From an uncultured Porphyromonadaceae bacterium (lineage in GTDB: Bacteria > Bacteroidota > Bacteroidia > Bacteroidales > Muribaculaceae): DNA of 17,507 bases. The notes under the pieces were generated by a model, which saw nothing but the letters and a program-made list of their open reading frames with translations, searched no databases and was not told the origin of the DNA. The DNA lies in the NCBI GenBank assembly GCA_947176925.1, contig CAMWSN010000038.1:1-17507 (forward strand). The letters are read 5' to 3'. The position numbers and the translations under genes were made by a program. Positions 1 to 15,776 of the stretch are shown in pieces. Numbering within the stretch: position 1 is the stretch's first letter; each line of letters begins with the position of its first letter.

Positions 1-447
1 GGGGAGGGTGGAGAGGTGGAAGCCGGCAGCGGTTAGCTGGCGGGCAAGTGCCGGTTTTCCGCGGAATCCATGGATAATCCAGGGGACAGTGGGGCGCAAT
101 TCCTTATGGAGTGCGAGGATTTCAGCCCATGCGCGGACAATGTGGAGAATCAGGGGCTTTTGCAAGCGCTCGGCTAATAGGGCATGTCGACGGGTAAGGT
201 TGATCTGCGCCTGAATGTCGCCTCCGCGCAGGCGGTCAATGCCACATTCCCCGACCATCACAACCTGAGGGGAGGCGGCCGTGCGTTCAACCCACTCGAA
301 GTCTACCCCCTCTGAGCCCCACCAAGGGTGCCAACCGACGGAATACATCGCCTCGGGGCGCACGGGCGTCTCGAGGCGGTCAAGGTTTATTATAGCGTTA
401 TCGGCTAATGGGTTATGAGTGTGAATATCTGCAACCTTAGGAATCAT
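1..447 (-). CDS. TatD-family metal-dependent hydrolase, partial. The N-terminus lies in the window and the 3' end runs off the window start.
   Basis: The minus-strand frame is open from the ATG at 447-445 down to position 1 (149 codons; my own translation). The protein begins MIPKVADIHTHNPL...VGWHPWW...VMVGECGIDRLRG, which matches the TatD DNase/hydrolase pattern (His-x-His metal site, ECG(L/I)D motif). The start overlaps the GH3 stop as ATGA. It is absent from the ORF track only because there is no stop inside the window. Confidence 0.6.
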   Translation of the reverse strand, partial: MIPKVADIHTHNPLADNAIINLDRLETPVRPEAMYSVGWHPWWGSEGVDFEWVERTAASPQVVMVGECGIDRLRGGDIQAQINLTRRHALLAERLQKPLILHIVRAWAEILALHKELRPTVPWIIHGFRGKPALARQLTAAGFHLSTLP

Positions 448-1943
448 ACGGTCTGGAGAATAGCGTCGGCAATGCGACGGTCCGGGCAGAGGCGGGGCAC
501 TTTGCGCTGACCTCCGAGCTTGCCGGTAGAGGCGAGCCAGGTGTCAAACGTGCCTTTGGGCAGGGGGATAACTTCCACGGGGTCAAGGAAGATAGAGCCT
601 TGGCGCTTGGCTGCATAATCCGAGTTTTCCAGACAGAGGTTGCTGTCCAGTTCAGTAGCAAAAGTCTTTATATCAGGGCGATAGCCGTTGAATTCCACAA
701 GCCACTGATGGCGTCCGCGGCTATGGTCGGTCGTATAGACCGGGGCGGCGGTATAGTCGCTGACCTGGCAATGGAGTTTATTGCAGGTTGAGGCGAGGGC
801 CGCGTCGGAATTGTGGACCATAAGTTCCTCGCCGAAAGCATTGATAAATAGCTTGGTACGTCCGGCAATCGAGATTCTCAGCGGGGCCGTAGACTCGATT
901 TTGACGGTGTCGCCAGTGGAGTATCGCCAGAGTCCGTTGGGAGCTGAGAGGATGAGGGCGTAGACCTTGCCTTGCTGCACCTCCCAAGCGGGCACGGGTT
1001 TTCCGCCGCCGAGGGGTTCGAATTCATAGAAGATGCCGACGTCAGGTAGGAGCAACATAGCTCCGGGCTCGCGGAGATCTTGAACGGCAAAGAATCCTTC
1101 GGAGGCGTTATACGTCTCGAGATAGCGCATTTTGGGGTCAGTGATGGCCTGATATTGAGCGCGATAGGGATCAAAGGAGATACCGCCGTGGAAGAAGACC
1201 TCAAGATTGGGCCACACGTCATGAATCGAATCGGCTCCGGCCTTTGCCATCACTTCGCGGATTACGGTGAGGAACCATGAGGGCACGCCCGAGATGGAGC
1301 GCACATCGGCCTTGAGACTTGCCTCGACAAGGGCGGGAAGTTTCTGCTTCCAGTCGGCCATTAGAGCGACATCCTTGGAGCGGGGTACGCGGAAGGCACC
1401 GGCCAGCGAGGGCATTGCGTCAATCATGTTTGCGGAAAGGTCACCGACGTGGACCCCGGCGGGAACATCGGTAAGAGCAGTGGCAAAAGAGCCACCTAAA
1501 ATAAAGGAGTTGCCTCCGAAAATTTTGCTGTCAGGATAGAGCTTCAGATATTGAGCTACGACGGACGACGAGCCGGCATAATGATTCCACTGAAGCGACT
1601 CCTTGGTTACGGGGATAAACTTCGAGCGCCCGTCAGAAGTGCCGGAACTTTGAGCGAAACGGCGCGTAACTCCGGGCCAGAGAACATCTTTCTCGCCGGC
1701 TAACATACGCATAACCTGAGGACGAATCTCTTCATAAGGGTGCATCGGAACGCGCTCGGCAAATTCCGCCGGAGTCTTGATGGTCCGGAAATCATATCGA
1801 CGGCCTATCTCAGTATTGCGTGCCGCGTGAATAAGTTGAGCAAGCGTCTCTTTCTGCACTTTCTCAATATCATCAGCATGGCGACTTAAAGAATTGGCTC
1901 TCGCAATGAAGAATGGTTTGGCTATGGGTGTGAAGTTAAGCAT
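444..1943 (-). CDS. GH3 auxin-responsive-promoter family protein (acyl-adenylate-forming enzyme superfamily)
   Basis: A 499-aa ORF. Its length and overall sequence recall the GH3-family proteins that are widely annotated in Bacteroidetes. It has an AT-rich upstream region with a -7 box. Confidence 0.7.
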   Translation of the reverse strand: MLNFTPIAKPFFIARANSLSRHADDIEKVQKETLAQLIHAARNTEIGRRYDFRTIKTPAEFAERVPMHPYEEIRPQVMRMLAGEKDVLWPGVTRRFAQSSGTSDGRSKFIPVTKESLQWNHYAGSSSVVAQYLKLYPDSKIFGGNSFILGGSFATALTDVPAGVHVGDLSANMIDAMPSLAGAFRVPRSKDVALMADWKQKLPALVEASLKADVRSISGVPSWFLTVIREVMAKAGADSIHDVWPNLEVFFHGGISFDPYRAQYQAITDPKMRYLETYNASEGFFAVQDLREPGAMLLLPDVGIFYEFEPLGGGKPVPAWEVQQGKVYALILSAPNGLWRYSTGDTVKIESTAPLRISIAGRTKLFINAFGEELMVHNSDAALASTCNKLHCQVSDYTAAPVYTTDHSRGRHQWLVEFNGYRPDIKTFATELDSNLCLENSDYAAKRQGSIFLDPVEVIPLPKGTFDTWLASTGKLGGQRKVPRLCPDRRIADAILQTV

Positions 1944-1960
1944 AATAGTTTCTGATTTTG

Positions 1961-1968
1961 CAAAGTTA
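1961..1968 (-). promoter_or_regulatory. Bacteroidetes-type -7 box (TAACTTTG on the minus strand) for the GH3 gene
   Basis: Read on the minus strand, the sequence is CGTAACTTTGCA. It matches the TAnnTTTG consensus and lies about 18 nt upstream of the GH3 ATG. Confidence 0.3.
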
Positions 1969-2004
1969 CGACAAATTTTGCGGTTTTGCAGTAAGTTTAG
2001 TTAT

Positions 2005-2012
2005 TAATTTTG
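2005..2012 (+). promoter_or_regulatory. Bacteroidetes-type -7 box (TAATTTTG) for module 1
   Basis: It matches TAnnTTTG. It is 38 nt upstream of the ATG at 2050, inside an AT-rich divergent intergenic region. Confidence 0.3.
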
Positions 2013-2049
2013 TGTTTTTCTTTTCATAATTATAACAAATAAAACCCTT

Positions 2050-3972
2050 ATGAAGTTGGATTTTAATTTACCAAAAATCGCAGACGTCAGTAAATCAAGC
2101 AATTGCACAGTAAATTTACGTGAACGCTATGGCGTATTGACTCCGTGTGGTACTCCCCCGACCGTTCAATCCGAGGCGGGAGTGCGTAATTTCCGTCTCC
2201 CTTCGGGCCGCATACTGAGTGTGGGCGCTGACCGCCATGACCTGATGATTGACGGCGAACTCATCGGCTCGCTCTCCTCGCCCTTCGGAGCGCTGCTGCC
2301 GGAAGGTCCCGGCGACGACTGCATCATCCTGACCACCAATTCGGCGCCCGAATGGCTGATTGACAGCGAACTGCGCGGCAAGTTCACTCCTCTGAAATCT
2401 GAGATCAACCTCTCGGCTGTCGGCGAGATGACGATGGAGCAATCCGTTGAAGCCCTGAAACTTAGCGGGAGTTATCCGCGAGCATCCGGAGAGCTGACAG
2501 CGCCGGATTTGTCTCAGGCACATAAGGTACTGAAAAACGCCCTGACGGCCGTCGAATCCCGCGCCGCCGGGGCCGGAATGAGGGTGCAACCCGTCTGGAT
2601 GGCTTGGCAGATTCTCGACGCCGGCGGAAAAGTCATATCCCGCTCGGAACCTATGTTGGTTCAGTCATCGGCCGGATTTCAGGCCACCGGAAGCGTCAAG
2701 ATGACCCTCACCCGCAAAGATGGAAAATTCACCTCATGTTCTGCCGGAAGCCTCACGGTGAAGACCTACGAAGTGAAACTCAAGATAGCCCGCAGCGAAG
2801 ATTCATGGCGCCGACAGCGTGCGGCGCAGATTGAGATTTTGGCTTCTCCGGCTCTTGAGTTTATCACCGGAGCTATGGGCGCATTCAATCAGGTTGATTC
2901 GACGTCATCAACCCTTTTTATCAGTCCCTTGGGGGCAGATTCTTCGAGCCTTAACGCACTGAAAGAGCGCACCCGTGCGTCATTCGCTCAGACGGCGCGG
3001 GTCATTGCGCGCATTGATCACCCCCTTGAAGGAGTGGAGCAGACCATCGGGGTCAGCCCGCTTGACGATTCTTCATCATGGACCTCAAGCATCGGCGAAC
3101 CGAATGCCGTGTGTGCGTATCGGGGCGGATCGGCGGTGGTCTACGCCGATTCGCGCCAACCGGGAATTCTCCTTGCGGCGCCTTCGCTGTCGCCCCTGTC
3201 GCCCATAGGCTCGGCCAAGGTTTCCACCGGACGCATAGAGGCTATAATGGCTCCCGTGGGCAACGGCGGCGGATGGAACTACGGGCGATACCATCTTCTT
3301 GTTTTTGCGACCGACGGGGTTTATGCCGTCAGCATTGACCGCACCCTCAGGGTCATTTCCTCCCAGCAGATTCACGGGTGCGGCGTAAGCGGTCCGGAGT
3401 CCGTAGCCCGGGCTTTTGACGCGATCTATTTTGCCGATTCCCGGGGTGAACTTCTGCGTTTAAAGGGTTCGAAAATAGAGTATATGCAAGCACCGTTTGC
3501 AGTGGCTTCGGTGGGCTTTTCATCGGCCTTTTCGGAGCTTTGGATTTCCTCTACTGCAGGTCAGCAGACCGCCTCGATAGCGTTACCGTCAATGAAATGC
3601 ACTTTGCGCTCTGATCTTCATGCGGTGCGGTTTGAGGCTGACGGCTTGGCCGTGGATACTTCCGGAGCGCTGCGGGACCTTCACCGGGAGACGGCGCGAA
3701 ATTGTCTCGTAGAATGGACCAGACGCATCGAAACGGATTTTCAAACGTGTGAGGCTACTTGGCAAATTGACTCGGCGATGGTCCAGGGTTTGGAGCTTAC
3801 ATTGGCGACCGATGGCGGAGGGGCGCCCCAGAGAGTTAATCAGCTGCGAATCAACGGGCGAATCAACGCGCCGCTGAGATTAAAAATTTATTCTCCCGCA
3901 AGACCTTACGTGACAGTTAGTTTTCGCGGAATAGTCTCACCGGATAGTCGATTCCGGAAAATAAAATTTTGA
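2050..3972 (+). CDS. hypothetical protein (640 aa), first gene of module 1
   Basis: A long ORF with no competing frame. GC is high (about 60%). I see no Walker A motif, no TM segments and no recognisable motifs. The overlapping antisense ORFs at 2116-2589 and 3085-3375 are probably spurious. Confidence 0.7.
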   Translation: MKLDFNLPKIADVSKSSNCTVNLRERYGVLTPCGTPPTVQSEAGVRNFRLPSGRILSVGADRHDLMIDGELIGSLSSPFGALLPEGPGDDCIILTTNSAPEWLIDSELRGKFTPLKSEINLSAVGEMTMEQSVEALKLSGSYPRASGELTAPDLSQAHKVLKNALTAVESRAAGAGMRVQPVWMAWQILDAGGKVISRSEPMLVQSSAGFQATGSVKMTLTRKDGKFTSCSAGSLTVKTYEVKLKIARSEDSWRRQRAAQIEILASPALEFITGAMGAFNQVDSTSSTLFISPLGADSSSLNALKERTRASFAQTARVIARIDHPLEGVEQTIGVSPLDDSSSWTSSIGEPNAVCAYRGGSAVVYADSRQPGILLAAPSLSPLSPIGSAKVSTGRIEAIMAPVGNGGGWNYGRYHLLVFATDGVYAVSIDRTLRVISSQQIHGCGVSGPESVARAFDAIYFADSRGELLRLKGSKIEYMQAPFAVASVGFSSAFSELWISSTAGQQTASIALPSMKCTLRSDLHAVRFEADGLAVDTSGALRDLHRETARNCLVEWTRRIETDFQTCEATWQIDSAMVQGLELTLATDGGGAPQRVNQLRINGRINAPLRLKIYSPARPYVTVSFRGIVSPDSRFRKIKF

Positions 3973-4013
3973 AAAAAGTTGTCAAAATATTTGCATTTTG
4001 CCAATTTATGTTG

Positions 4014-4021
4014 TAATTTTG
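4014..4021 (+). promoter_or_regulatory. -7 box (TAATTTTG) upstream of the small acidic protein
   Basis: It matches TAnnTTTG and is 34 nt upstream of the ATG at 4055. It argues against the ORF-track start at 3998. Confidence 0.3.
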
Positions 4022-4054
4022 CAATCATCAAACAAAACATTCATTACAAACATC

Positions 4055-4243
4055 ATGGAAGAAGAAAAGCTCAAAGAGCTGCTTGCCGACGCCGAGGAGC
4101 GCGGCTATCAGCGCGGACTCAATGCCCGCATCGAAGAAGAAATGAAACGTCCCGGAATATGGGAACAACCTCCGCAGGAAGAGTTACCTGAAGAAGACTA
4201 TCAAATCCTTGCCAATCCCCGACGCACCCCTTGGGACAATTAG
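4055..4243 (+). CDS. small acidic helical protein (62 aa); scaffold-like or cargo-like candidate
   Basis: An internal ATG sits at 4055, downstream of the promoter box. The protein is MEEEKLKELLADAEERGYQRGLNARIEEEMKRPGIWEQPPQEELPEEDYQ..., strongly charged and predicted helical. It lies immediately upstream of the capsid-like gene. Confidence 0.45.
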   Translation: MEEEKLKELLADAEERGYQRGLNARIEEEMKRPGIWEQPPQEELPEEDYQILANPRRTPWDN

Positions 4244-4310
4244 TAATTAGGAATTAGCAATTAGTAATTTTGTATTTTGTATTTTTCATTTTGTATTTTT
4301 CATTTAAGCT
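4244..4310. repeat. intergenic short tandem repeats, (TAGnAATT)x4 followed by (TTTTGTATTTTTCA)x2, containing a -7 box at 4265-4272
   Basis: The sequence reads tagtaattaggaattagcaattagtaatt then ttgtattttgtatttttcattttgtatttttcattt. A TAATTTTG box sits at 4265-4272, 38 nt before the ATG at 4311. Confidence 0.5.
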
Positions 4311-5531
4311 ATGATTCAGACTATCGAAACAACCGCACAACAAGCTCCCGAACTGCTCAAAAACGACATTGACCAGCGCCTGACCAAACTGCGCCCCATG
4401 TCGACCCCCGTTGACCAGATTTCACGCTTCACCGAGGCGCGACCCGTCAACAGCATGAAAGTGGGCTACTATGCCCTGGCCATGCGTGACTTTGAGACCA
4501 AAATCAGTGCCAACGTCTCCAAGACCGGTATCACCACCGAAGGTCAGGAAGTAAACTTCAAAGTAATCAATCCGGGAATTTTTGACGTCAGCGAGACGGT
4601 CATGATCGACGGCGTAAAGGACGACAACGGCGAACCGATGATTTTCTACGTCACGGGAATTGACCGTGCGAAAATGACCGTCAACCTCCGTCCGATAAAT
4701 CCGCAGACTGACTCGGACAACAACACCCCCTGTGTTCCCCGCATTGACAAGGGCACGACTATCATGCGCCTGGGACGCGCCGCCGGCGAACTTGACGTCC
4801 AGACCGGACAATACGAAACCCTTCCGGAAAAGAAGGAAAATTACTGTCAGATTTTCAAGTCACAGATAGAGCAGTCAACCTTGCTGACGCGCTCAAATAA
4901 GGAAGTAGGCTGGACCATGTCAGACCAGGAAGAAGTGGCCATCTATGACATGCGTTTGGGCATGGAGCGCTCATTCCTCTTCGGACATAAGGCCGTATTC
5001 TCTGACCCGGTGAAGAAATGTGACGTCTTTTTGACCGGCGGCATCTGGCATCAGGCCGGCAAGGAGGCCAACTACTCCGGCGAAACCATCTCGGCCAAGG
5101 ACTGGACCGAGATTATGGCCAAAGCCTTCACCGGCCATAACAGCGGCAAGCGCAAGGTCCTCATCGGAGGCACCAAACTCATTGAGCGCCTGAGCGTGAT
5201 GACCACCGAGAGCACTCAGCGCGTGATGATGTCAGAGCAGAAAGTCACCCGCTGGGGCATGGACTTCAGTGAGATGGTCACCAAGTTCGGCACCCTCTAC
5301 GTGATTCACTCAGAGGTACTCGACTCCTGCGTCCACACGGACGACGGCATCATCATCGATCCGGAATACCTGACCAAGTATGTCCACACGCCCTTCAAGG
5401 CTGAAACCCTGGACTTGCGCACGTCAGGCCAGCGCAACACGGAGGCCGTGGTCCTGACTGAAATCTCCTGCCTGGTTCTGCGCCACCCTCAGGCCCACTG
5501 CCGAATCATCAAAACCACTCCCCAGGCCTGA
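4311..5531 (+). CDS. HK97-fold major-capsid-protein-like protein (406 aa)
   Basis: The N-terminus (IDQRLTKLRPMSTPVDQI) resembles the start of HK97-family MCPs. The C-terminus (EISCLVLRHPQAHCRIIKTT) closely parallels the HK97 gp5 C-terminus (...LALAHYRPTAIIKGTF). The size fits HK97-fold MCPs. Its stop overlaps the next start (TGATG). Confidence 0.5.
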   Translation: MIQTIETTAQQAPELLKNDIDQRLTKLRPMSTPVDQISRFTEARPVNSMKVGYYALAMRDFETKISANVSKTGITTEGQEVNFKVINPGIFDVSETVMIDGVKDDNGEPMIFYVTGIDRAKMTVNLRPINPQTDSDNNTPCVPRIDKGTTIMRLGRAAGELDVQTGQYETLPEKKENYCQIFKSQIEQSTLLTRSNKEVGWTMSDQEEVAIYDMRLGMERSFLFGHKAVFSDPVKKCDVFLTGGIWHQAGKEANYSGETISAKDWTEIMAKAFTGHNSGKRKVLIGGTKLIERLSVMTTESTQRVMMSEQKVTRWGMDFSEMVTKFGTLYVIHSEVLDSCVHTDDGIIIDPEYLTKYVHTPFKAETLDLRTSGQRNTEAVVLTEISCLVLRHPQAHCRIIKTTPQA

Positions 5532-6016
5532 TGAAGCAGACTCTCACCCAAGCTCAGATGCTTGAGCGATGGAAAAGGAAACGTATGGTCGAGCCCCTGA
5601 GGCTCGACTGTACGGTCACCCGGACCGACGGACCGGACATAGACGCCATCCTCATTGACGAGATGCGTTCCTGGTACTTGAATCTGCTTGACAGCGGGCC
5701 CATGTCGTCCTTGGCGCCGGTTGACGTCACCATGACCTGCAAAACTGACCCCATCAGCGACGGACGTACGCTTATCACAGGGCCCGAAGGCTGCCGCCGG
5801 ATTCTATCCGTGAGATTTTCGGAATGGGACTTCCCTATCGAAGTCAAAAACGAACCGCCAAACATCAACTATAACCCCTATCAGCTGCGCCCGGAGGTCA
5901 TCAGGCTTGCACCGGACCGGGTGGCAGTCATCGGCGCCAAAGGGTCACTGCGCGAAGTCCTTGCTGCAGTCGACATATCTCCCGCAGTTTATATCCTTGA
6001 CGATTCCGTAATCTAA
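5531..6016 (+). CDS. hypothetical protein (161 aa), translationally coupled to the capsid-like gene
   Basis: A one-nucleotide stop/start overlap. No motifs recognised. A head-completion or adaptor role is possible only by position. Confidence 0.6.
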   Translation: MKQTLTQAQMLERWKRKRMVEPLRLDCTVTRTDGPDIDAILIDEMRSWYLNLLDSGPMSSLAPVDVTMTCKTDPISDGRTLITGPEGCRRILSVRFSEWDFPIEVKNEPPNINYNPYQLRPEVIRLAPDRVAVIGAKGSLREVLAAVDISPAVYILDDSVI

Positions 6017-6021
6017 ATCCC

Positions 6022-7269
6022 ATGCTAAACCAGATCCATAAGGCGGAAGCGGCCATGGCCTCATTCCGCAAAAACCGAGAATTGCTCAAGGAGTTTACCT
6101 TCGGAAGGCAATTACAGGACGTCCCGGACAAGAGCGGACGTCAACACCTGACCAATAACCTTATCCATCAGTTGGTCAAAACCCTCATAGGCCATTTTCG
6201 CGAACAAAGCGCCAAACAGCAGGATGACCATAACAGACTGTCAGAGTTGGATGCCCGGATGTTTGAAGAATTTCTGATTTCCGGAGCGGCTATCCAACAT
6301 ATCATCCGGGAGCGACGTCCGGGATTTCAGGAGGAACTGACGTGGGTCGACAACGTCAGCCCGGCAAACTTCTTTGCCTACCCCCTGCGCGATCCCCGCG
6401 CCCTCGACATCGAAATCATCGGCATGCGCCATGACTGGAGTATTTCCGAAGCCTTAGGTCGCCTGGCCTTCGGGTCACGTCAAGCCGCCCAACAGTTGAG
6501 GCAAAGGCTGCTGATGGAGGCCCGGGACCGCACTCCGGGATTTGAGCGATGTGAGATTATCGAGGTCTGGACGCGCGAAATCTCGGAAGTCTACCGATGT
6601 CATGACCGCAGTCGCGCCAAGATGATGATTGTCAGCGAGCGGGACCTCCCGGAAATCGCAAGGTTAAACCGCACATATAAACGCACGGGAAAACCGAAAA
6701 TCACCATTAAAATGGAGATGCAGACCCGATGGGTCGGCCGATACCTGACCGCTACCGGCTTCGAATTAGCTCGCCGCGAAGCCGAAAGACATCCGTTTGC
6801 CGTCAAATTCTATCCACTGCTCGACGGGGAGATTCACTCATTCGTGGCCGGCCTCGTAGACCAGCAGAAGTTTGTCAACCGGCTTGTCAATCAAGTGGAC
6901 AACATGATGACCACTTCGGCCAAGGGAGTCCTGCTCTTTCCGGAAGATGAACTTGCGGAACATTGCACCCTTGACCAAGTGGCGGAACTATGGTCCAGCT
7001 TCGACGGTGTCATACCCTACCTGCCCCGCTTGGGCTCCCAGGGACCGAAACAGGTAGTCACCAACCCGAGCGATTGCGGAGCCTACGAATTACTCAATAT
7101 TCAGATGCAATTCTTTGACCGCATCAGCGGTATCAGCAACGCGCTAAGAGGCAAAAACGACGGCGGCAACTCGGCCCAACTCTTTGACGCCCAAACGCGA
7201 AATTCCTTAGCCGCCATTGCCGACACCTTCGCCGCCTTCCGCGACTTCCAATCCTCCCGCCCCCTCTAA
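6022..7269 (+). CDS. hypothetical protein (415 aa), last gene of module 1
   Basis: A long ORF 5 nt after the previous stop. No Walker motif and no rolling-circle Rep motifs were recognised. It ends 36 nt before the palindrome/terminator. Confidence 0.65.
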   Translation: MLNQIHKAEAAMASFRKNRELLKEFTFGRQLQDVPDKSGRQHLTNNLIHQLVKTLIGHFREQSAKQQDDHNRLSELDARMFEEFLISGAAIQHIIRERRPGFQEELTWVDNVSPANFFAYPLRDPRALDIEIIGMRHDWSISEALGRLAFGSRQAAQQLRQRLLMEARDRTPGFERCEIIEVWTREISEVYRCHDRSRAKMMIVSERDLPEIARLNRTYKRTGKPKITIKMEMQTRWVGRYLTATGFELARREAERHPFAVKFYPLLDGEIHSFVAGLVDQQKFVNRLVNQVDNMMTTSAKGVLLFPEDELAEHCTLDQVAELWSSFDGVIPYLPRLGSQGPKQVVTNPSDCGAYELLNIQMQFFDRISGISNALRGKNDGGNSAQLFDAQTRNSLAAIADTFAAFRDFQSSRPL

Positions 7270-7305
7270 AAAAAATGTTTAATAACATATTTAAGTTTTT
7301 TTAAT

Positions 7306-7335
7306 AATTATCTTCCCTCGCGAGGGAAGATAATT
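7306..7335 (+). terminator. 30-bp perfect palindrome (AATTATCTTCCCTCG/CGAGGGAAGATAATT) followed by a T-rich run. It is a probable intrinsic terminator of module 1, or alternatively an operator.
   Basis: The arms are exactly complementary (read directly). An A-run lies upstream and TATTATTTTT downstream. It sits between two co-oriented gene clusters. Confidence 0.55.
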
Positions 7336-7338
7336 TAT

Positions 7339-7346
7339 TATTTTTG
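7339..7346 (+). promoter_or_regulatory. possible -7 box (TATTTTTG) for module 2
   Basis: It matches TAnnTTTG, but it lies 56 nt upstream of the ATG at 7402, which is longer than for the other boxes. Confidence 0.2.
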
Positions 7347-7401
7347 GCAGATAAAACACCAAATTATAAACCAATTCACACATAAACCTTTTTTTAGATA
7401 T

Positions 7402-8694
7402 ATGGCTATAATTGATTGCGTCTCCTGGAGCCCGCAAGGCAGCGAGGTTATTTATGCTTATAAGTTTCCTCAGGATAATTTATCCACCTATACTCAACTG
7501 ATTGTTAACGAGTCACAAGTGGCCCTGTTATTCTCCAAGGGAGAACTCATGGGCAAATTCGGACCCGGAAAACATACGCTGAACACTGAAAACCTGCCTA
7601 TTCTGCGCAAACTTTACGGGCTTCCTTTCGGAGGTAAAAATCCGTTTACGGCTCAGGTATGGTTTGTAAACCTCATTGACACTTATAATATTCCCTGGGT
7701 CATAAGGAAGCTCGCCGTTCATGATGCGGACTACCAGACCAATCTGCCGTTGATGATTGACGGACAATATGGCGTCAGAATCACCGACCCGGAAAAATTC
7801 ATCATCAACATGGTCGGTACGCGCAACATTTACACTCAAAATGACCTCACCTCACAATTCGAGGGAGAATTCACGACCAAGGCCAAGTCAGCTATCGTCA
7901 GCTTCATGAATCAGAACCATATAGGCTACAAAAGCATCTCGGCCCATCTTGATGACCTTTCAAACATGCTCCGCTTCCAGCTCAGTGAGTTCTGGAAAAA
8001 CGTAGGCATCGAGCTGACTAAATTCTATGTTTCTGATATAGACATCGATACGTCAACTCCCGAAGGCAAAAAGGTCAAAGAAGCTATTGCCACTCAAAGC
8101 TCCATGTCAATCACCGGCCATACATGGCAACAGGAGCAGATGTTTGGCACCGCCAATAACGCCCTCAACAATATGACCGGCGGAGGAGGCAACGGTATGG
8201 GCGGAGGAGGTCTGCTCGGCGGACTGATGGCCATCAACATGATGAACAACATGAGCGGCGGCATGGGCGGCGCGGCCATGAATCCCCAGTTCCAGCAGCC
8301 TACGTTTGGAGGCGGACAGCAGGCCGGAGGCTATGGTGCCGCTCCCGGCGCTCAAGGCGGCGGAGGGGTCAAGATGGTCTATTGCTCCGCATGCGCTAAA
8401 AAGTTCCCCGCATCAATGGAATTCTGCCCTAACTGCGGCAATAAGTATCGCCCCTGTCCCAACTGCGGTTCTGACAATCCCGAATCGGCTAACCGTTGCG
8501 TCAACTGCGGAACCCCCCTGGCGGGAGCAGCGCCGAAATGTCCTCACTGCCATACGGTGATTCCCCAAGGATGTTCCTTCTGTCCCGGATGCGGAAGTCC
8601 CGTCATCACTGATAACAATACCTGCAGCCGATGCGGCTCAATGATTCCTCCGACGGCTAAATTCTGTCCGCGATGTGGCAACAAACGTTCTTAA
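7402..8694 (+). CDS. SPFH/Band-7-like domain protein (YdjI-like, PF13421-type) fused to a Gly/Met-rich linker and a four-zinc-ribbon C-terminus
   Basis: Residues 1-245 follow the YdjI/'virion core protein'-type SPFH pattern (FP...QLIVNESQVALLFSKGELMGKFGPGKHTLNTENLPIL...VWFVN...VRITDPEKF...IELTKFYVSDIDID). Nucleotides 8161-8367 encode a low-complexity G/M/N/Q-rich stretch. Nucleotides 8383-8691 encode eight CxxC pairs (CSAC, CPNC, CPNC, CVNC, CPHC, CPGC, CSRC, CPRC), which is four zinc ribbons. Confidence 0.75.
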   Translation: MAIIDCVSWSPQGSEVIYAYKFPQDNLSTYTQLIVNESQVALLFSKGELMGKFGPGKHTLNTENLPILRKLYGLPFGGKNPFTAQVWFVNLIDTYNIPWVIRKLAVHDADYQTNLPLMIDGQYGVRITDPEKFIINMVGTRNIYTQNDLTSQFEGEFTTKAKSAIVSFMNQNHIGYKSISAHLDDLSNMLRFQLSEFWKNVGIELTKFYVSDIDIDTSTPEGKKVKEAIATQSSMSITGHTWQQEQMFGTANNALNNMTGGGGNGMGGGGLLGGLMAINMMNNMSGGMGGAAMNPQFQQPTFGGGQQAGGYGAAPGAQGGGGVKMVYCSACAKKFPASMEFCPNCGNKYRPCPNCGSDNPESANRCVNCGTPLAGAAPKCPHCHTVIPQGCSFCPGCGSPVITDNNTCSRCGSMIPPTAKFCPRCGNKRS

Positions 8695-8704
8695 ATTATA
8701 TGCC

Positions 8705-9427
8705 ATGAATATCAAAGCTCTTTCATTGCTGCTTGGAATCTTCGGCCAAGGGCTCATTGCCGCCATATTCTTCTGGATTATCCCCGAATCACTGCCTACT
8801 GACGTCCGATGGCTTGACTTCATCGTGATTTCCCTTGTCTTCTGGCTCTGGATGTGGAACTTCGTCACTCCTCCGATTGACCTCCAGGACAAGAGCCAAA
8901 AACAGGTCGGCGGCTTGGGTCAACGCTGGAGCTCCATAGGGCTATATAGCCTTTTGGCAGTTCTCTTTGTTTGCTATAATCTCTATGCCGAACTCAGCGG
9001 CGATGCAACTCCACTGAAGTTCTCCCTGCAACTGATCATTCAGGCCATTTTCCTTTTCCTGCTCTTGGGTGGATTGCTGATTTCTCAGGGCATAACGCAG
9101 AAAACCGGCTCAGTCTATGCCTATGAGCAAACCCTCAAGGCAGGTAAAGCTGACTTGAAAGCGTCAATTCAGCAACTTCTCTATAAGGCTGAGGACTTTA
9201 AGGGAGTCCCCGCTGAAGTCAAGGACCGGCTGAAAAGAATTGCCGCTGAAACGCGCTACATCACTCCTTCCACCTCAGGCGCCTGTATGGCTTTGGATTC
9301 CGACATTGTCAAAAGCTGCGATATGCTCCGGTCATACATGGCTGACTATGAAGTCAATCAAAAGCAAATCAGCTCACTGATTGACCAACTTGAACGCGAC
9401 CTTAACCGACGCAGAAAAGCGATTTAA
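8705..9427 (+). CDS. integral membrane protein (about 4 TM helices) with a C-terminal cytoplasmic coiled-coil region
   Basis: The ORF track starts at 8675, overlapping the upstream gene. The in-frame ATG at 8705, just after the upstream stop, is the more likely start. I read four hydrophobic segments (LLLGIFGQGLIAAIFFWII, FIVISLVFWLWMWNFV, IGLYSLLAVLFVCYNLYA, LIIQAIFLFLLLGGLLI) and then a charged helical tail. Confidence 0.65.
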   Translation: MNIKALSLLLGIFGQGLIAAIFFWIIPESLPTDVRWLDFIVISLVFWLWMWNFVTPPIDLQDKSQKQVGGLGQRWSSIGLYSLLAVLFVCYNLYAELSGDATPLKFSLQLIIQAIFLFLLLGGLLISQGITQKTGSVYAYEQTLKAGKADLKASIQQLLYKAEDFKGVPAEVKDRLKRIAAETRYITPSTSGACMALDSDIVKSCDMLRSYMADYEVNQKQISSLIDQLERDLNRRRKAI

Positions 9428-9468
9428 TCATTTAATCACATAAACCAATTAACTAACAATCTAATCTA

Positions 9469-11550
9469 ATGGACGGAAAAATTTTCGCCGATTCCGCCAA
9501 TGTTTGGCAGGACCAGGCAAAAATCCTGTTCACCTATTACCGTCAGGCAGCTGAACGGATAGTAAGTGAAGAGGAACGAATCGAAGGACAAATAGCCCAA
9601 TTGGAAAAAGAAAAAGCCGCTTTAGAGGAAAAACTTTCCAAGGCTTGGGTTTATCTTTTCCTTCTGATTTTCCCCTATTTTATCGTTAAAAGTAATCTTG
9701 AGAAACAGATTGCCGGCATTGACGAGCGTATCAACGAATTCCGGAAGGTTCACGGCGAAATTTTCCGTGACTATAAGGTGAACAAATTGGGTGTGGCCTA
9801 CGTACCCGTAGCCGAGCAAGTGAAGTATCAGAACAAGAGCTTCATCGTGGACTTCACTCACTCAGTTCCGGAATCAGACATTTCGCTCTCTCTTTCTCGC
9901 CAAAATCAGCTCCTCATCGAAACCATTCACGCCCTTGACCATCTTGCCAAGGAAGCTCCCTTAGTTGAAACCTCCGAAGAAAGCGAAACCGTTGCTACAG
10001 ACGAATATTCCCTCTCGATTCAGGAAATCAAGGAGAATGACTATCTCGGTGCCCTTGAACGCTCGCTGCGCACCGTAGCTTTCTGTATGGACGATCTGGA
10101 GACGGCATCAGTCTCTCTTCCCTTGGTGCTTGATGATTCGCCCTATCTTCCGAAACTGGACCAATTTGCGACCGCCTCGCTCCCTGAAAACGCGCCGGTA
10201 GTTGAAATATTTGACAATACGGTGTATGCTCCCGGAGTGGAACGTTTCCGCGAAATCAACGAGCTTAAAAGCTCTCTCTCAAATGAAACGAGCCAGTTTG
10301 AGGAGATTCTCAAAGGACTGATGACCGCAATCGGCACCTCCGTTCAGACGATTGCCCGAATGAAGGTTGCGTCAGTTGATAAAGTGGTGTTGGAATCAAA
10401 CCGTCTTCTCTATCAAATCCTTAAAGCTCCTTATAATCACTACTCTCCCGCTCTTGAAGCCGAAGAAATCGAACGCATCCGTCACGAAGAATTTGACTAT
10501 GCTGAAAACATTCAGGAGTATGAACCCTTCCAGCTTCGCCAGTCATCCAGAGTGAAGTTTAACCCGATGTCCGGCACATGGGTGGCTGAAGACGGCTCGC
10601 AGACTATCCAGCCCTTCGGTATTCATCAGATGTATGAAGAAATCGTCGCTCCGATGGTTCAGAATCTCATGCAGGAAAACCGCATTGAGCGCCTGAAAAT
10701 CTATAACCACATCAAGGACCAAAAGATCAGCTACCTCAACAAATGGCATCAGGACACGGATGCCTTCTATCGCTCCAACCGCGCCGAAAGTGCTGACCTT
10801 ATCAACCTCATGCAGGCCACACTGACCGAATACGTCAGCGCCTTCAATAACCTCCTGGCCCTTCAGCGGACCGAACAGCAGATGGAAAATTCGGAAGGAA
10901 ACTTGGATTCAACGGTTGTAGACACCGTTGACAACACGGACGATTCAATCGCTGCATTCGAACTTCAAAGCCAGGAATTCCAGAAGTGTCAGAATGACTT
11001 TGAGGATTACATCGAACGCCTCAAAGAAGACATTGACCTTAAGGCCGCCAAGTTTGGACATGTTGAATACTTTGACGCCAAGCTGCGTGACGGTTATTCC
11101 AATTCCGTAGCCGTAGCCGCTGCAGAAATCCATGAAATGGATGACCGACGCAAAACCCTCGCTACCGTTAACCCCAAACTCGCCAAGGATTCCGAACTGC
11201 CCCCGCAGCCTCATGTCAGTGACCTCACTAACGAGCACTTCTCACTGAATCTGCCCGCAATGGTCCGCGAAGCTCTTGAAAGCCTCAACGGACCGATTGA
11301 AACCTACGTCCCTGACGCCGAACTTCAAGGAGAATCCAAAACGGAAATTCAGCCCGAACCTGATTTCCAGCCGGTAAATGATTTCCAACCGGAATTCCAG
11401 GGCGAACCGGAATTTATTCCGATGCCTCAGGATGAAGCAGGAATCCGGCCTGAAGAAACACCCCAGGAAGGACCTAAGCCTGAAACTCCCACTGAGGACA
11501 CTCCCATTGAGAAAAAAGACGATGAAGTTCCTCCCGTAGCTGAAAATTGA
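9469..11550 (+). CDS. large hypothetical protein (693 aa) with an N-terminal coiled coil, a single TM helix and an acidic proline-rich repeat tail
   Basis: A TM-like segment WVYLFLLIFPYFIV at residues about 59-73 follows an EKEKAALEEKL coiled coil. The C-terminal 70 residues are rich in E, P, Q and D, with PEPDFQP/NDFQP/EFQGEPEF repeats. Confidence 0.7.
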   Translation: MDGKIFADSANVWQDQAKILFTYYRQAAERIVSEEERIEGQIAQLEKEKAALEEKLSKAWVYLFLLIFPYFIVKSNLEKQIAGIDERINEFRKVHGEIFRDYKVNKLGVAYVPVAEQVKYQNKSFIVDFTHSVPESDISLSLSRQNQLLIETIHALDHLAKEAPLVETSEESETVATDEYSLSIQEIKENDYLGALERSLRTVAFCMDDLETASVSLPLVLDDSPYLPKLDQFATASLPENAPVVEIFDNTVYAPGVERFREINELKSSLSNETSQFEEILKGLMTAIGTSVQTIARMKVASVDKVVLESNRLLYQILKAPYNHYSPALEAEEIERIRHEEFDYAENIQEYEPFQLRQSSRVKFNPMSGTWVAEDGSQTIQPFGIHQMYEEIVAPMVQNLMQENRIERLKIYNHIKDQKISYLNKWHQDTDAFYRSNRAESADLINLMQATLTEYVSAFNNLLALQRTEQQMENSEGNLDSTVVDTVDNTDDSIAAFELQSQEFQKCQNDFEDYIERLKEDIDLKAAKFGHVEYFDAKLRDGYSNSVAVAAAEIHEMDDRRKTLATVNPKLAKDSELPPQPHVSDLTNEHFSLNLPAMVREALESLNGPIETYVPDAELQGESKTEIQPEPDFQPVNDFQPEFQGEPEFIPMPQDEAGIRPEETPQEGPKPETPTEDTPIEKKDDEVPPVAEN
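11353..11415 (+). repeat. imperfect short tandem coding repeats (gatttccagccg / gatttccaaccg / gaattccag...gaattt) encoding the (D/E)FQP motifs
   Basis: Read directly. They encode PEPDFQPVNDFQPEFQGEPEF. Confidence 0.5.
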
Positions 11551-11577
11551 TATTTACCTTAATCACTCAATAATTAT

Positions 11578-12498
11578 ATGTCCCATCATTTTGACTGTGT
11601 TATAGACACCTCCGAATTGGCTCACGAAGTCAGCTCGGTGAAGCATCATGTCGATGCTACGACGACGGCCGTTGTCGGAATGCAGGCTGCCGTGATTAAG
11701 GCCCAAAAAGAGGGTGCCGACAGAGTCTGCCGCAATGTCAATCAAGGCTTCTACGCCATGATTCATTCACAGATTTCTCAAAAAATGGCTACTCTGCAGA
11801 GCAAAGTTGACGCTCAGCTGATGCGCCTGAATCAACAGCGCAAACAGCTCCAAGCCATCCGCCAGCGCATGCAGCATGACTACATGATGATTTCCGCCCG
11901 CTACACCAAGCTCTTCAATGGACTCAACAGAAACCTCCGCCAACGGGTAACCGAACTTGACCGCCCGGTTCTGAATTTTGCAACCACCGAAACGGACAAA
12001 ATCATCAATCGCGGAAATCAGTTGGTTTCAGTAGTGCCCATCGGCCAGGGAGAAACAATCAAGACGAGCCAGAAAGTATCGGCATCAAACCTTAAGCGGC
12101 GCGCTGCCCAGGCTATTGAATCAATTGAACGATTCACCGTCAGCTCCCACACCCTTCAGCAAATCACTGATAAGATTCTGCTACACCGCTCCATGGAAAC
12201 TCCGACCGAAAAACTCTCAATCCCGGTCTGCATCATGGAAAGCAACATTGACGCTAACGGCAATGTCCAATCTCAGATTTTTGTCTCCAAGATAGGGCTC
12301 AACCAAGAAGTTGAAAACATGATTGAAACCCGCGTTTCAACTTCAATGAGAGAAAATAGTTTTGAATGGACTCAAAGCCCCGTGAATCCGGAAGTGGTCA
12401 ACTACTTCCGCCAGATGGTAATGGAGAGCGGACTTGACCCCCGACGTCAACAGCAAATCCTGCGGATGTTTGAATCAAATAAGTTTGAAACGTTATAA
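11578..12498 (+). CDS. hypothetical protein (306 aa), paralog A of a tandem pair
   Basis: It shares a clearly alignable core with the next gene (DYMMISARYTKLFNGLNRNLRQRVTELDRPVLNF versus DYQRLAERYTKIFTDLNNELENRIYAIDEPVFTS). It is predicted mostly helical/coiled-coil. Confidence 0.65.
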   Translation: MSHHFDCVIDTSELAHEVSSVKHHVDATTTAVVGMQAAVIKAQKEGADRVCRNVNQGFYAMIHSQISQKMATLQSKVDAQLMRLNQQRKQLQAIRQRMQHDYMMISARYTKLFNGLNRNLRQRVTELDRPVLNFATTETDKIINRGNQLVSVVPIGQGETIKTSQKVSASNLKRRAAQAIESIERFTVSSHTLQQITDKILLHRSMETPTEKLSIPVCIMESNIDANGNVQSQIFVSKIGLNQEVENMIETRVSTSMRENSFEWTQSPVNPEVVNYFRQMVMESGLDPRRQQQILRMFESNKFETL

Positions 12499-12510
12499 TA
12501 ATTTCTACTT

Positions 12511-13542
12511 ATGAGTTATACAAGACGTTTCAGTAGAAACATCACCGTCCATTACTCTGGCAATGTCAGCTATCCGCCCTCACAACATGGTGGCACGAAA
12601 TACTATAGCGGAAGCACCACTGAGACCATAAACTTTGAAGTGACTGTTGATACAGACCCTTTTGATGAGGAAGTTCATGAGATGAAGGGTCATGTCGACC
12701 TGCTGACCGGCTCTGTGGCCGCCACGGAGGCAGCCCACGTCAAGGTCATTGATGAAACATCACGCCAAATCGGCGATACAATCATCAGCGGATTCTTCAA
12801 GACGGTCAAATCCGACATTTCCCAGCAGGTTGCCGAACTGAAAAACAAGTCGGAAGCCCTATTGCTGCAACTTAACAAACTCGCCAAGCGATGCAATGAA
12901 AAGAAGCAGCAAATGGGAGTGGATTATCAGCGGTTGGCCGAGCGTTATACAAAGATCTTCACCGACCTCAATAACGAACTCGAAAACCGAATCTATGCGA
13001 TTGATGAACCCGTATTTACGTCAATCCGCGGAATTGAACGAACCGGCTCAATTACCGGACCCGGCGATCAGATTGCCACAGTCTCGGTAACTGCCGGAGA
13101 GCAATCCCGACTCCACTCCAAGATTGCCACCAACCTCACTAAAAAGCAAGCTATCAACGCTATTGAAAAGGGTCAGAAGTTCCTGACCGTTCAATACACC
13201 ACGGACCATATCCTTGGAAAATGTCTGCTTCCCCAGCGTAGCGGCGAAATGCTTGTCAGCCCCTACTGCTTAATTGAAACCACCGACGATAACGGTATCC
13301 GCCATCGCAACGTCTTTTCTTCACCGCTCTTAGAGGGTATAAACCCCGAATCCTTAGCTGAAAAAATTGACCCGATGATGAACACCTCAATCAGCGATTC
13401 CGACTTGAAAATTATCAGTGACTATTTCAACGCCAAGGTTGCTGATGAGATGGCCGGAGCATCTGATATTCATTCGCGCCGAGTGGCCGAGATGACATCC
13501 AAACTTTTTGATCTTTCACAAACCGCCACCCCCGGCGAATAA
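12511..13542 (+). CDS. hypothetical protein (343 aa), paralog B of a tandem pair
   Basis: It shares the same conserved core as 11578-12498 and starts 12 nt after the previous stop. Confidence 0.65.
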   Translation: MSYTRRFSRNITVHYSGNVSYPPSQHGGTKYYSGSTTETINFEVTVDTDPFDEEVHEMKGHVDLLTGSVAATEAAHVKVIDETSRQIGDTIISGFFKTVKSDISQQVAELKNKSEALLLQLNKLAKRCNEKKQQMGVDYQRLAERYTKIFTDLNNELENRIYAIDEPVFTSIRGIERTGSITGPGDQIATVSVTAGEQSRLHSKIATNLTKKQAINAIEKGQKFLTVQYTTDHILGKCLLPQRSGEMLVSPYCLIETTDDNGIRHRNVFSSPLLEGINPESLAEKIDPMMNTSISDSDLKIISDYFNAKVADEMAGASDIHSRRVAEMTSKLFDLSQTATPGE

Positions 13543-13563
13543 AATTTTACAAAATTTTTTACG

Positions 13564-14535
13564 ATGAATAAAGTTGAACTTAAAGAGATACGCTTTGACA
13601 GCACAGACGTTATCCTGAAAGATAACTTGGTGCGCGGAGCCATTCTCCCCCAAAAAATAGCGGAACTCAACCGCAACATCATCTTTGACGGAAACACTGA
13701 AGTTGAAGGAGCAATTTTCGGCCGCAACGTTAATGTGCGCGGAGGTGAAGTAGAAGTTCATGGAGCAGTATTTGCTCAAAAGGAATTCTATATTTCCAAC
13801 GATGTCAAAGGCGAAGTGAAATTCTTGAAAACAGTTGGCTCTGCCGGCTCGGTAACGGCCCGCACAACTAATTGCAAACCGATGTTCTGCTCCGACATTA
13901 ACGCCAAAAGCGTGACACTCTATAACTGCTACGTTGCGGGAAGCATCTATGCCGATGAAATCACCTTGGAAAACTGTGTGGTCATTGGCGGGGTGTTTGC
14001 CACTCAGGAAGCAAGCATCTGTAACAGCATCATCGGCACTTTCAACACTCCGCGAGTGACCCTCGACGGTACGGTGCAACTGCTTCTTCCCTCAGCATTC
14101 ACCATTGAGCAGCCACTGACCGGACCTAACACCCGCTTGTTTAACCTTTCGCTTGCTGATTTAGGCGCTCTTTTCCGCGGAATGCCCGAAGATTCTAATT
14201 CAGGCAGAATCCCGATGAATCTTGAAGCCGATGAAGTGAAGTCTACGTTGGTTGAAGGCGAAAAGCAATGCCATTTGCGCACGTTTACCGTAATTGGTAA
14301 GGTGCTTGCCGCTGACCTGATTGATACGGACAAGTTCCAAAACCACTTCCTGCTGACGGCCGCTTCGTTAGGCCCGCAACTGCTTAAAACCTATGATTTG
14401 GGAAATAATGCAGACGGATCGCCTGCGAAACTTGAATCAACGAGTATCTGCAACTTCATGTTTGACGTATTGTCAGGCAAAAAGGAACCTCGCGAAATTG
14501 ACGCGACATTCTCACTTGCCGACATAGCAAGATAA
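13564..14535 (+). CDS. bactofilin-like (polymer-forming, beta-helix repeat) protein with a roughly 150-aa C-terminal extension
   Basis: The N-terminal 180 aa consist of short degenerate beta-strand repeats rich in G, V, N and small residues (IFDGNTEVEGAIFGRNVNVRGGEVEVHGAVFA...VTLYNCYVAGSIYADEITLENCVVIGGVFA). This is the pattern of the bactofilin/DUF583 right-handed beta-helix. The antisense ORF at 13516-14079 is probably an artefact of the repeats. Confidence 0.45.
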   Translation: MNKVELKEIRFDSTDVILKDNLVRGAILPQKIAELNRNIIFDGNTEVEGAIFGRNVNVRGGEVEVHGAVFAQKEFYISNDVKGEVKFLKTVGSAGSVTARTTNCKPMFCSDINAKSVTLYNCYVAGSIYADEITLENCVVIGGVFATQEASICNSIIGTFNTPRVTLDGTVQLLLPSAFTIEQPLTGPNTRLFNLSLADLGALFRGMPEDSNSGRIPMNLEADEVKSTLVEGEKQCHLRTFTVIGKVLAADLIDTDKFQNHFLLTAASLGPQLLKTYDLGNNADGSPAKLESTSICNFMFDVLSGKKEPREIDATFSLADIAR

Positions 14536-14550
14536 TTTTCCTAACAGCAT

Positions 14551-14581
14551 AAAAAAAACCGGGTTTAACCCGGTTTTTTTT
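14551..14581. terminator. bidirectional rho-independent terminator (A8-CCGGGTTTAACCCGG-T9)
   Basis: A GC stem CCGGG/CCCGG with a 5-nt loop, flanked by an A-run upstream and a T-run downstream. It lies between convergent genes, so it can terminate both module 2 and the minus-strand FKBP gene. Confidence 0.6.
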
Positions 14582-15476
14582 ATAGGATTTCAACGGTCAT
14601 GTAGACGCTTTCGCAGGGGCCGACGCCGGCATCCGGATTGCCCTGGACGCCGTAGGCATATTCATAGGGGATAAAGAATTTGGCTTTTTGGCCGTGGCGC
14701 ATATATTTGAGCACTTCGGTCAACATCGGGTTAAATCCGCGGGCAGGGAACATGGATCTTTCAACTTGATGATCAATCGGCTCACCGTCAAGGCGCAAAA
14801 CCGTAAAGTTGACTTTCACTCGTTCGTCAGGAGCAAGCAGGTCACCGGTGCCTTCTTCTTCAATATTGCAATAAATACCTGAGTTTTCAATCTGCGTAAA
14901 GTCAGAGTTTGATTGGAAAGCGGAGGCGATGCTTTGGGCCATCGTGCGATTTTGTTCGGCTTCGGGAGTATTGTAAATCTCTTTTTCGAGCTCCTGCTGC
15001 TTGCGGGTGAATATTTCATTAGCGATCTGTTCATATTGCATACTCATCTCCTGCACCTGACTGGCATCAATGCTGTCAAGTCTGAGTGAACTCATAACGG
15101 TTTCCATAAATTTTCCTTTGTCCAGGGGCATCTGTGAGGAGGTCTGAGTGTAAGCTTGAAGGATACCCATTCCGATATTAAGACCATAGACATAGCTCAT
15201 TTCCGTCGAATCGGCAATCATAACCTGGCGGATACCGCGCTCAAAATCGCTCATATTGAATTTTTCGGAAAATTGAGGGTCCTGATGAATCGCAAAATTA
15301 AAGTAGGCACCCACAAAAGTACCCTGAATTGCAATCACGGAATCTTCAAAGGTCTTGGCGTTCTCCAAACGCTCCGCAAGCAGAGCCTCGATAGATTGAT
15401 TTTCAGCAGTTTTTTTCTCACCGCTACAGGAGCAAATCAGCGCAGCCGCCACAGCTCCAAAAATTATTTTTTTCAT
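14580..15476 (-). CDS. FKBP-type peptidyl-prolyl cis-trans isomerase (FkpA-like) with an N-terminal signal/lipoprotein-like peptide
   Basis: The N-terminus is MKKIIFGAVAAALICSCSG, a signal peptide with Cys residues that may include a lipobox. The C-terminal approximately 110 aa form an FKBP domain (VKVNFTVLRLDGEPIDHQ...GFNPMLTEVLKYMRHGQKAKFFIPYEYAYG). Confidence 0.75.
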   Translation of the reverse strand: MKKIIFGAVAAALICSCSGEKKTAENQSIEALLAERLENAKTFEDSVIAIQGTFVGAYFNFAIHQDPQFSEKFNMSDFERGIRQVMIADSTEMSYVYGLNIGMGILQAYTQTSSQMPLDKGKFMETVMSSLRLDSIDASQVQEMSMQYEQIANEIFTRKQQELEKEIYNTPEAEQNRTMAQSIASAFQSNSDFTQIENSGIYCNIEEEGTGDLLAPDERVKVNFTVLRLDGEPIDHQVERSMFPARGFNPMLTEVLKYMRHGQKAKFFIPYEYAYGVQGNPDAGVGPCESVYMTVEIL

Positions 15477-15757: not shown

Positions 15758-15776
15758 CCATATGATTTTTTTTTTT

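Follow-up and report, generated by a model that had tools for sequence, protein, structure and literature searches.

An operon of five same-strand genes at 2050-7269 (+) was studied in a stretch of 17,507 nt from an uncultured Porphyromonadaceae bacterium of the Muribaculaceae (GenBank assembly GCA_947176925.1, contig CAMWSN010000038.1, positions 1 to 17,507), which is the whole of the DNA analysed and is referred to below as the window. In order, the operon encodes a 640-aa protein (p640), a 62-aa protein, a 406-aa major capsid protein (MCP), a 161-aa adaptor-like protein and a 415-aa portal protein, the four partners of the capsid gene having the sizes given in the initial annotation of this DNA. 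It is probably the head-neck locus of an old, host-fixed, multi-locus, domesticated podophage system that resembles a gene transfer agent (GTA). The gene set is spread across Bacteroidales, in Muribaculaceae and their relatives, over hundreds of gut species, and is not a prophage fragment in decay. In some genomes it forms one eight-gene module (p800, the large terminase subunit TerL, a small gene, MCP, adaptor, portal and two genes for proteins of ~145 aa), while in most genomes it is split into cassettes of 2-6 genes that lie between unrelated cellular genes, TerL usually being found with p640/p800 at a separate locus.

The capsid gene is a 406-aa open reading frame (ORF) starting with ATG at 4311-5531 (+). 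Its translation contains both terminal strings on which the initial annotation had relied, LTKLRPMSTPVDQI near the N-terminus and LVLRHPQAHCRIIKTT near the C-terminus. The product matches the Pfam family SU10_MCP (PF17236, DUF5309) with an E-value of 2.1e-50 and 172 bits (cut-off 24.1), residues 5-401 being aligned to positions 5-290 of the 292 in the profile. Additionally, it matches phrog_1328 'major head protein' (E-value = 5e-10), and its family profile detects PDB entry 9in6, the solved capsid protein of phage VP1 (E-value = 5e-10). These matches bear out the earlier call of a capsid-like protein and, as far as homology can tell, the product is a tailed-phage major capsid protein of the HK97 class, SU10/VP1-type; the HK97 fold is assigned because of the homology to the SU10 family and to the VP1 capsid protein. 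Both termini had also been said to mirror the ends of HK97 gp5. The C-terminal string quoted for gp5 is accurate, but the comparison of the capsid family profile with gp5 is not significant (hhalign probability 0.13), and this likeness is suggestive rather than evidence. Homologues of the capsid protein form 2707 clusters. When one genome per species was scanned, at least 347 genome stretches were found to encode a relative; the statistics on neighbours of the capsid gene refer to the best 80 capsid loci, from species-representative genomes. In the phage collection, the only matches are three temperate Bacteroides phages, BF1-TP2, BKO1-TP3 and BS-TP4 (PQ571263, PQ571269, PQ571277), with 36-37% identity. 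The third-position GC of the capsid gene (0.73) is raised in comparison with its operon partners (0.59-0.67) and the flanking glycoside hydrolase family 3 (GH3) gene (0.61), which may reflect the codon bias of a highly expressed gene.

The four partners had been described as lacking phage head or tail features, a view that has to be abandoned for at least two of them. The 415-aa product (6022-7269, +) is a portal protein, recognised both by a family profile match and by the portal fold of its predicted structure. It is the shortest of its family, the median length being 460 aa over 56 loci and the range 612-684 aa in the related phages. The C-terminal region of the nearest phage portals is absent from it and, in keeping with this, the alignment of the portal family profile to the 781-aa GP4 portal (8jov) ends at residue ~490; judging from known portal architecture, the missing part would be the crown. 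The gene of the 161-aa protein (5531-6016, +) overlaps the capsid stop codon with its own start (TGATG). A PDB sequence-profile search with this protein gave no match, and from its modelled structure it may be a podophage head-to-tail adaptor-like protein of the T7 gp11 type. Searches of NCBIfam matched no protein of the module. No prohead protease was detected in the chromosomal module by Pfam or PHROGs, nor do the examined parts of the phage records have one in their annotation, which fits a P22-style assembly.

Concerning the 62-aa acidic protein (4055-4243, +), a small ORF is kept 5' of the capsid gene in 58 of the 80 loci. The profile of this protein aligns to the C-terminal third (residues ~150-230) of the phage protein in scaffold position, which has 255-262 aa (E-values from 1e-5 to 2e-3, 12 loci), and both position and alignment suggest a scaffold-like remnant of that protein. 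The first gene of the operon, p640 (2050-3972, +), has no Pfam or NCBIfam match, and a PDB sequence-profile search was also empty. Its family is nevertheless phage-derived, as it is related to the 882-aa gp34 of Bacteroides phage BKO1-TP3 (hhalign probability 98.3%, E-value = 3e-14), homologues of which are kept in all three related temperate phages. BLAST-level clustering had placed p640 at few loci, as if it were lineage-specific; an exhaustive search overturned this, revealing a large family of 557 cluster representatives, most of them 750-870 aa long and usually encoded elsewhere than beside the capsid gene. p640 is possibly a tail or nozzle-like structural protein.

Putative control signals lie around and within the operon. 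Only two copies of the pattern TTTG-N15-22-TAATTTTG are present in the window (0.03 expected by chance), and both precede module genes: TTTG-N16-TAATTTTG at 1985-2012 (+), 38 nt 5' of the p640 gene, and TTTG-N20-TAATTTTG at 3990-4021 (+), 34 nt 5' of the 62-aa gene. The promoter consensus of Bacteroides consists of TTTG at -33 and TAnnTTTG at -7, and the two motifs are putative promoters of the Bacteroidetes type. The second one may serve as a cassette promoter, since the core cassette starts with the small gene in most other species. Downstream, a strong hairpin resembling an intrinsic terminator (13-bp stem, 7306-7335) followed by a T-run closes the operon at 7306-7345 (+), so that the promoter and terminator boundaries proposed earlier for the module were both recovered. 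The spacer between the small gene and the capsid gene (4243-4310) holds a third TAATTTTG box at 4265-4272 and what appears by eye to be a tandem copy of ~14 bases, ATTTTGTATTTTTC; it may be a separate promoter or an operator of the capsid gene.

The locus is old in its present position. In relatives with 85% and 67% capsid identity, the same five genes, all with intact ORFs, lie between the same GH3 and FKBP genes, and synonymous sites are nearly saturated (dS 0.7-3.6). All five genes are under purifying selection: the ratio of nonsynonymous to synonymous substitution rates (dN/dS) is 0.05-0.08 for the portal, 0.11-0.16 for the capsid protein, 0.12-0.17 for the 161-aa protein, 0.11-0.16 for p640 and 0.16-0.27 for the 62-aa protein, with 0.02-0.04 for the GH3 gene as a control. 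The GC content of the five genes (53-56%) is like that of the neighbouring GH3 gene (55%). The window contains no tRNA gene or att-like feature and no contiguous integrase, lysis, tail or replication genes, the hallmarks of a prophage. These data leave little room for an ordinary prophage remnant drifting toward loss. Such an origin would account for an incomplete gene set whose parts all have homologues in temperate Bacteroides phages; it is nonetheless hardly credible for ORFs that are intact at dN/dS of 0.05-0.27 and near-saturated dS, have a GC content equilibrated with that of the host and recur as the same cassette in dozens of species and in different cellular contexts. The decayed prophage offered as one option in the initial annotation is contradicted by the same intact ORFs and dN/dS values. 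Its picture of a domesticated capsid module among housekeeping genes gains support from the conserved synteny, the purifying selection and the occurrence in many species with no integrase or tail genes nearby. As to the surroundings, this picture is right for the upstream neighbour, a housekeeping-type GH3 gene, and wrong for the downstream side, where 7402-14535 is a lineage-specific insertion.

The comparison of synteny across Bacteroidales, which had been proposed as a check, showed that the core of the module is kept. The best 80 capsid loci come almost entirely from Muribaculaceae or unclassified Bacteroidales metagenome-assembled genomes (MAGs), and the core of small gene, MCP, adaptor and portal recurs in 56 of the 80 sampled species, each time with other cellular genes on its sides and in no case beside an integrase or tail gene. 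All ORFs within -6/+8 kb of the capsid gene were clustered, and on the same strand nothing recurs but the small ORF, the capsid gene itself, the adaptor-like gene (57 loci), the short portal gene (56 loci) and, in a subset of loci, two ~145-aa genes downstream of the portal gene; that interval has no recurrent integrase or tail gene, and only three of the 80 loci encode a terminase within 10 kb. The flanks vary by lineage and are cellular, for instance genes of the histidyl-tRNA synthetase HisRS with LptFG/RibBA, of poly(A) polymerase with LptD/PNPase, or of alanine dehydrogenase with Mur genes. Around 14 loci with ample flanks carry only the small gene and the capsid gene. These 'capsid gene only' loci were considered as truncated loci or prophages, an explanation that we dropped as they have at least 9 kb of flanks with neither portal nor TerL and as the two halves of the cassette stand 4 kb apart at one locus (L041). 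The capsid-only loci and the split cassette of L041 therefore indicate a modular gene set that has repeatedly been split.

Some entries of this set deserve separate mention. One sheep-rectum Muribaculaceae MAG holds two cassettes (L020 and L063; JAFXHY010000043.1 and JAFXHY010000201.1), with 49% and 47% capsid identity to the window, and represents either two copies per genome or a mixed bin. Cassettes of the Bacteroidales type are also found under the labels Pseudoflavonifractor sp., Roseburia faecis and Senegalimassilia sp. (L024, L046 and L064), most likely on mis-binned or mislabelled contigs rather than after transfer to other phyla. Finally, IMG/VR files L173-L176 as viral contigs of 6-10 kb, all of which have the short portal and the first three of which (L173-L175) also have the module-type TerL; virus-detection pipelines thus count these chromosomal cassettes as viruses.

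A cassette of head genes could also work in the manner of capsid-forming satellites, making heads that depend on a co-resident or infecting related phage for tails and perhaps for packaging functions. The module does encode a head, a portal and an adaptor, the last being where a tail would dock, and has no recognisable tail fibre or lysis genes; related phages exist in the same hosts. We find this quite improbable, however, as integrase, excision, replication and regulator genes are absent within 10 kb at all 80 loci, the window has no tRNA gene, relatives separated by a dS of about 1 or more share the position, and a gene set scattered over several loci is not packageable as a unit. The satellite-like module suggested as another option by the initial annotation meets with the same objections, namely the lack of integrase, replication and regulator genes, the stable position at near-saturated dS and the cellular flanks.

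The link to DNA packaging comes from the terminase. At loci L031 and L044, the gene order is p829, a 631-648-aa gene, small gene, MCP, adaptor, portal and two ~145-aa genes, and the flanking genes are those of a sulfate permease and of proteins secreted by the type IX secretion system (T9SS). The 631-aa protein of L031 is 41% identical to the product of the gene next to the portal in phage BF1-TP2. Pfam did not match it, while PHROGs and the PDB profile search identified it as TerL (phrog_2 'terminase large subunit', E-value = 3e-21; T4 gp17, E-value = 1e-14). Contiguous terminase-bearing modules were found at L031, L044, L093, L095 and L173-175; L093 and L095 have the same contiguous eight-gene module, and L107 has p776-TerL with two ~145-aa genes. 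PDB sequence-profile searches with the two ~145-aa proteins were empty. A role as small terminase was considered for the first of them, its position upstream of TerL in phage-like loci being the only basis, and is not claimed.

A metagenome scan with the TerL of L031 returned 296 relatives, the best 80 of which are described here. At 20 of these loci the p640 family adjoins TerL as a p800-TerL pair, and other loci have TerL alone. The unlinked genes, paired or not, mostly lie directly beside genes of cellular proteins (GH5 cellulase, a CHAT/TPR protein, M16 peptidase, GH31 glycosidase, the methionyl-tRNA synthetase MetRS, FtsZ), the last four being neighbours of lone TerL genes, and at one locus the NusA gene is two genes further away. 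Among 44 distinct chromosomal TerLs, the Walker A (LKARQWGGST), Walker B and ESTANG motifs and three nuclease motifs are kept at 95% or more. In a neighbour-joining (NJ) tree, TerLs from p800-TerL pairs fall together with those from contiguous modules. The p640 family links the loci, because it adjoins the capsid cassette in the clade of the window and TerL elsewhere. Human gut contigs of up to 984 kb (L111-L130, L167) carry, in many samples, a lone 678-aa TerL gene between genes of an Eco57I-type methylase and a SusC-like receptor. This group (L111-L130) was tried as a member of the domesticated clade and set aside, as the tree places it among phage-like TerLs, away from the p800-TerL pairs; it may be another remnant or domestication, separate from the first.

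As chromosomal phage structural genes that are inherited with the host and have no integration or replication genes, the set shows one of the hallmarks of a GTA. In the mechanism that we propose, a procapsid would form around the portal and the scaffold remnant, in the P22 style and with no protease, a terminase whose gene is elsewhere in the genome of the window would fill it with DNA, the adaptor would close the portal, and p640 may form a tail stub; a particle that packages DNA in this way would therefore be a gene-transfer-agent-like element. Three observations weigh against it. No terminase is encoded in the window, as the initial annotation had rightly noted, nor within 10 kb of the module in the four closest relatives. 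At the position taken by TerL in the contiguous modules, the operon has a gap of 83 nt between the p640 and 62-aa genes which, with no TerL nearby, means that the lineage may have lost packaging. Lastly, none of the genes of the system was identified as a lysis, receptor-binding or clear tail gene.

Since TerL is encoded neither in the window nor within ±10 kb of the module in its clade, readings that dispense with packaging of this kind have to be weighed, namely a DNA-free particle and an anti-phage decoy, besides the helper-dependent heads treated above. The terminase and the two small genes might have been deleted from an ancestral p800-TerL-small-MCP-adaptor-portal module, leaving five genes, still under purifying selection, that build a non-packaging, portal-bearing capsid (a bacterial compartment or released particle of a new kind, or an assembly decoy directed at related phages), which would differ from encapsulins as well as from GTAs; this course of events is unlikely. 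That the lineage lost its terminase and now forms a DNA-free particle, in which the shell of capsid, portal and adaptor together with p640 is a protein compartment or a released particle, is unlikely as well. It would explain why the clade shows the 83-nt gap in place of TerL, lacks the two ~145-aa genes too and has the shortest portal of the family, with the five remaining genes still under purifying selection. On the other hand, TerL stands at another locus in most other genomes, so its absence from 17.5 kb says little, the retention of portal and adaptor is hard to explain without DNA translocation, and neither a cargo-like gene nor an encapsulin family match was found (Pfam, NCBIfam). The encapsulin-like compartment listed as the first option by the initial annotation is unlikely, given that a portal and an adaptor stand alongside the capsid gene and that orthologous modules include TerL. 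A GTA-like, multi-locus system stays our preferred reading.

Comparison with the temperate phages shows where the chromosomal set departs from its viral relatives. BF1-TP2, BKO1-TP3 and BS-TP4, alone among the phage records, share with it, apart from the capsid protein, the portal (~30% identity) and TerL (41% to the TerL of L031), and they also carry homologues of the adaptor-like, scaffold-position, first ~145-aa (d145) and p640-family proteins. Unlike the module, they are complete phages of 64-68 kb with a 644-aa portal, a 260-283-aa scaffold-position protein, giant virion proteins, an endolysin and genes for replication and regulation. Their gene order is also different: portal (-), TerL (-), two small genes, the 260-283-aa scaffold-position gene, a 478-aa capsid gene, a 121-aa gene and a 222-aa adaptor-like gene. 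In IMG/VR, the matches at 45-49% capsid identity consist of such cassettes and of a few short contigs (L177-L180, L200) whose gene order is closer to that of phages, and the contigs of 34-66 kb with a 644-aa portal are all at 37% capsid identity. A midpoint-rooted NJ tree of 128 capsid proteins places the long-portal phages apart from all cassette and capsid-only loci. Homologous loci inside complete prophages, the case that the initial annotation had opposed to its own proposal, exist for distant relatives (BF1-TP2-like, capsid ~37%) and not for the clade of the window. Our literature search found no publication describing the BF1-TP2 phages.

In PQ571263 and PQ571269, one gene each is labelled 'tail spike protein' (L004, 10921-12948, -; L092, 29873-31987, +). 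The BF1-TP2 gene (L004) is in fact a large terminase, as shown by its PHROG matches, its T4 gp17 profile match and its position beside the portal, and the identically labelled BKO1-TP3 gene (L092) is of comparable size. The labels 'rhomboid protease' and 'glycoside hydrolase' on the small genes 5' of TerL also look doubtful.

With respect to these phages, the chromosomal portal is ~200 residues shorter and the scaffold-position protein is shortened too, a pattern that may also be read as an anti-phage decoy, in which a truncated scaffold fragment and a portal deprived of its C-terminal region poison assembly when BF1-TP2-like phages enter the cell. For the small protein, the match to the phage protein is confined to the C-terminal third, the ~200 residues are lost from the C-terminus of the portal, and related temperate phages do infect Bacteroides. 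Even so, we hold a decoy to be very unlikely: the capsid protein is kept at full length, the adaptor is conserved as well and relatives retain a catalytically intact TerL, which suggests that particles are built and not blocked, and an identity of 30-41% to the known phage proteins is low for direct co-assembly. A PADLOC scan of p640, the sole module protein scanned, gave no match.

Two other regions of the window lie outside the module. Between the portal terminator and the FKBP gene, a block of 7.1 kb (7402-14535, +) contains six genes, the first for an SPFH/Band-7 protein with three zinc ribbons and the others for proteins of 250, 693, 306, 343 and 323 aa with no confident family. Its GC content is 48.5%, in comparison with 54-56% around it, and it is absent from all syntenic relatives, and therefore we regard it as a later, apparently recent insertion. 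PADLOC gave no match in this block except for a marginal one to LeoBC for the 306-aa protein. Further downstream, an AAA_14/DUF4143 ATPase gene (15815-17086) with a GC content of 39.5% and a third-position GC of 0.30 stands between FKBP genes; its product strongly matches the PADLOC candidate defence family PDC-S01 (E-value = 5e-66). The gene is present in relative L088 and absent in L090 and L005, and is thus mobile or recently acquired.

Encapsulins, like the protein described here, are HK97-class shell proteins encoded in the chromosome outside prophages. Their operons, however, have no portal, adaptor or terminase and encode cargo with targeting peptides, whereas portal and adaptor-like genes share the operon here, the only Pfam match of the capsid protein is SU10_MCP, no candidate enzyme is encoded, and the homologues of p640 and of the 62-aa protein are phage proteins. 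Capsid-forming phage-inducible chromosomal islands (cf-PICIs; Alqurainy et al., 2023) are reportedly mobile islands with integrase, regulator, replication and packaging genes. They resemble the module in encoding their own capsid, portal and connector proteins and no tails, and differ in the integrase, regulator and replication genes, none of which is near the module in the 80 loci.

In mammalian gut communities, Bacteroidales are dominant, and their rates of gene exchange are high. If our reading is true, the operon represents a new, independent case of virus domestication, fixed in hundreds of Muribaculaceae and related species, and a candidate route of gene flow in the gut. The capsid genes are currently annotated just as 'DUF5309' or 'hypothetical', and some cassettes are already filed as viral contigs. 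In our search of the literature on DUF5309, on GTAs or viriforms in Bacteroidota or Muribaculaceae and on domesticated capsids in Bacteroidales, we found no description of the system, nor of any other GTA or domesticated capsid system from this order.

Among known GTAs, RcGTA of Rhodobacter capsulatus provides the precedent for a multi-locus 'genome' (Hynes et al., 2016; PMC5026251). Both RcGTA and the Bacteroidales set consist of phage-derived head and packaging genes that are chromosomally fixed, lie at several loci, have no integrase or replication genes, are inherited with the host and are under purifying selection. RcGTA is siphophage-derived, while the Bacteroidales set is podophage-derived, with a portal of the SU10/GP4/P22 type and a T7 gp11-like adaptor; unlike RcGTA, it comprises at most eight recognised genes with no identified tail, fibre or lysis genes, and has no terminase in the window. 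For Bacteroides, recent gut studies report lateral transduction only, whereas GTA activity has been described in Oscillospiraceae and Ruminococcaceae (PMC12946183). From the same environment, FpGTA of the commensal Faecalibacterium is encoded by an operon of ~10 kb, and its particles, which look tailless, and their packaged DNA were obtained experimentally (Nat Commun 2026; PMC12946183). By description, FpGTA and the present system are alike in belonging to gut commensals and in having a compact operon of about that size with terminase, portal, scaffold and capsid genes, proteins of the short-tailed-phage type and a second locus elsewhere. The Bacteroidales set belongs to a different phylum and is usually more fragmented. 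What appears to be new is a GTA-like system that is podophage-derived, unusually minimal and fragmented, equipped with a shortened portal and found in an order with no known GTA.

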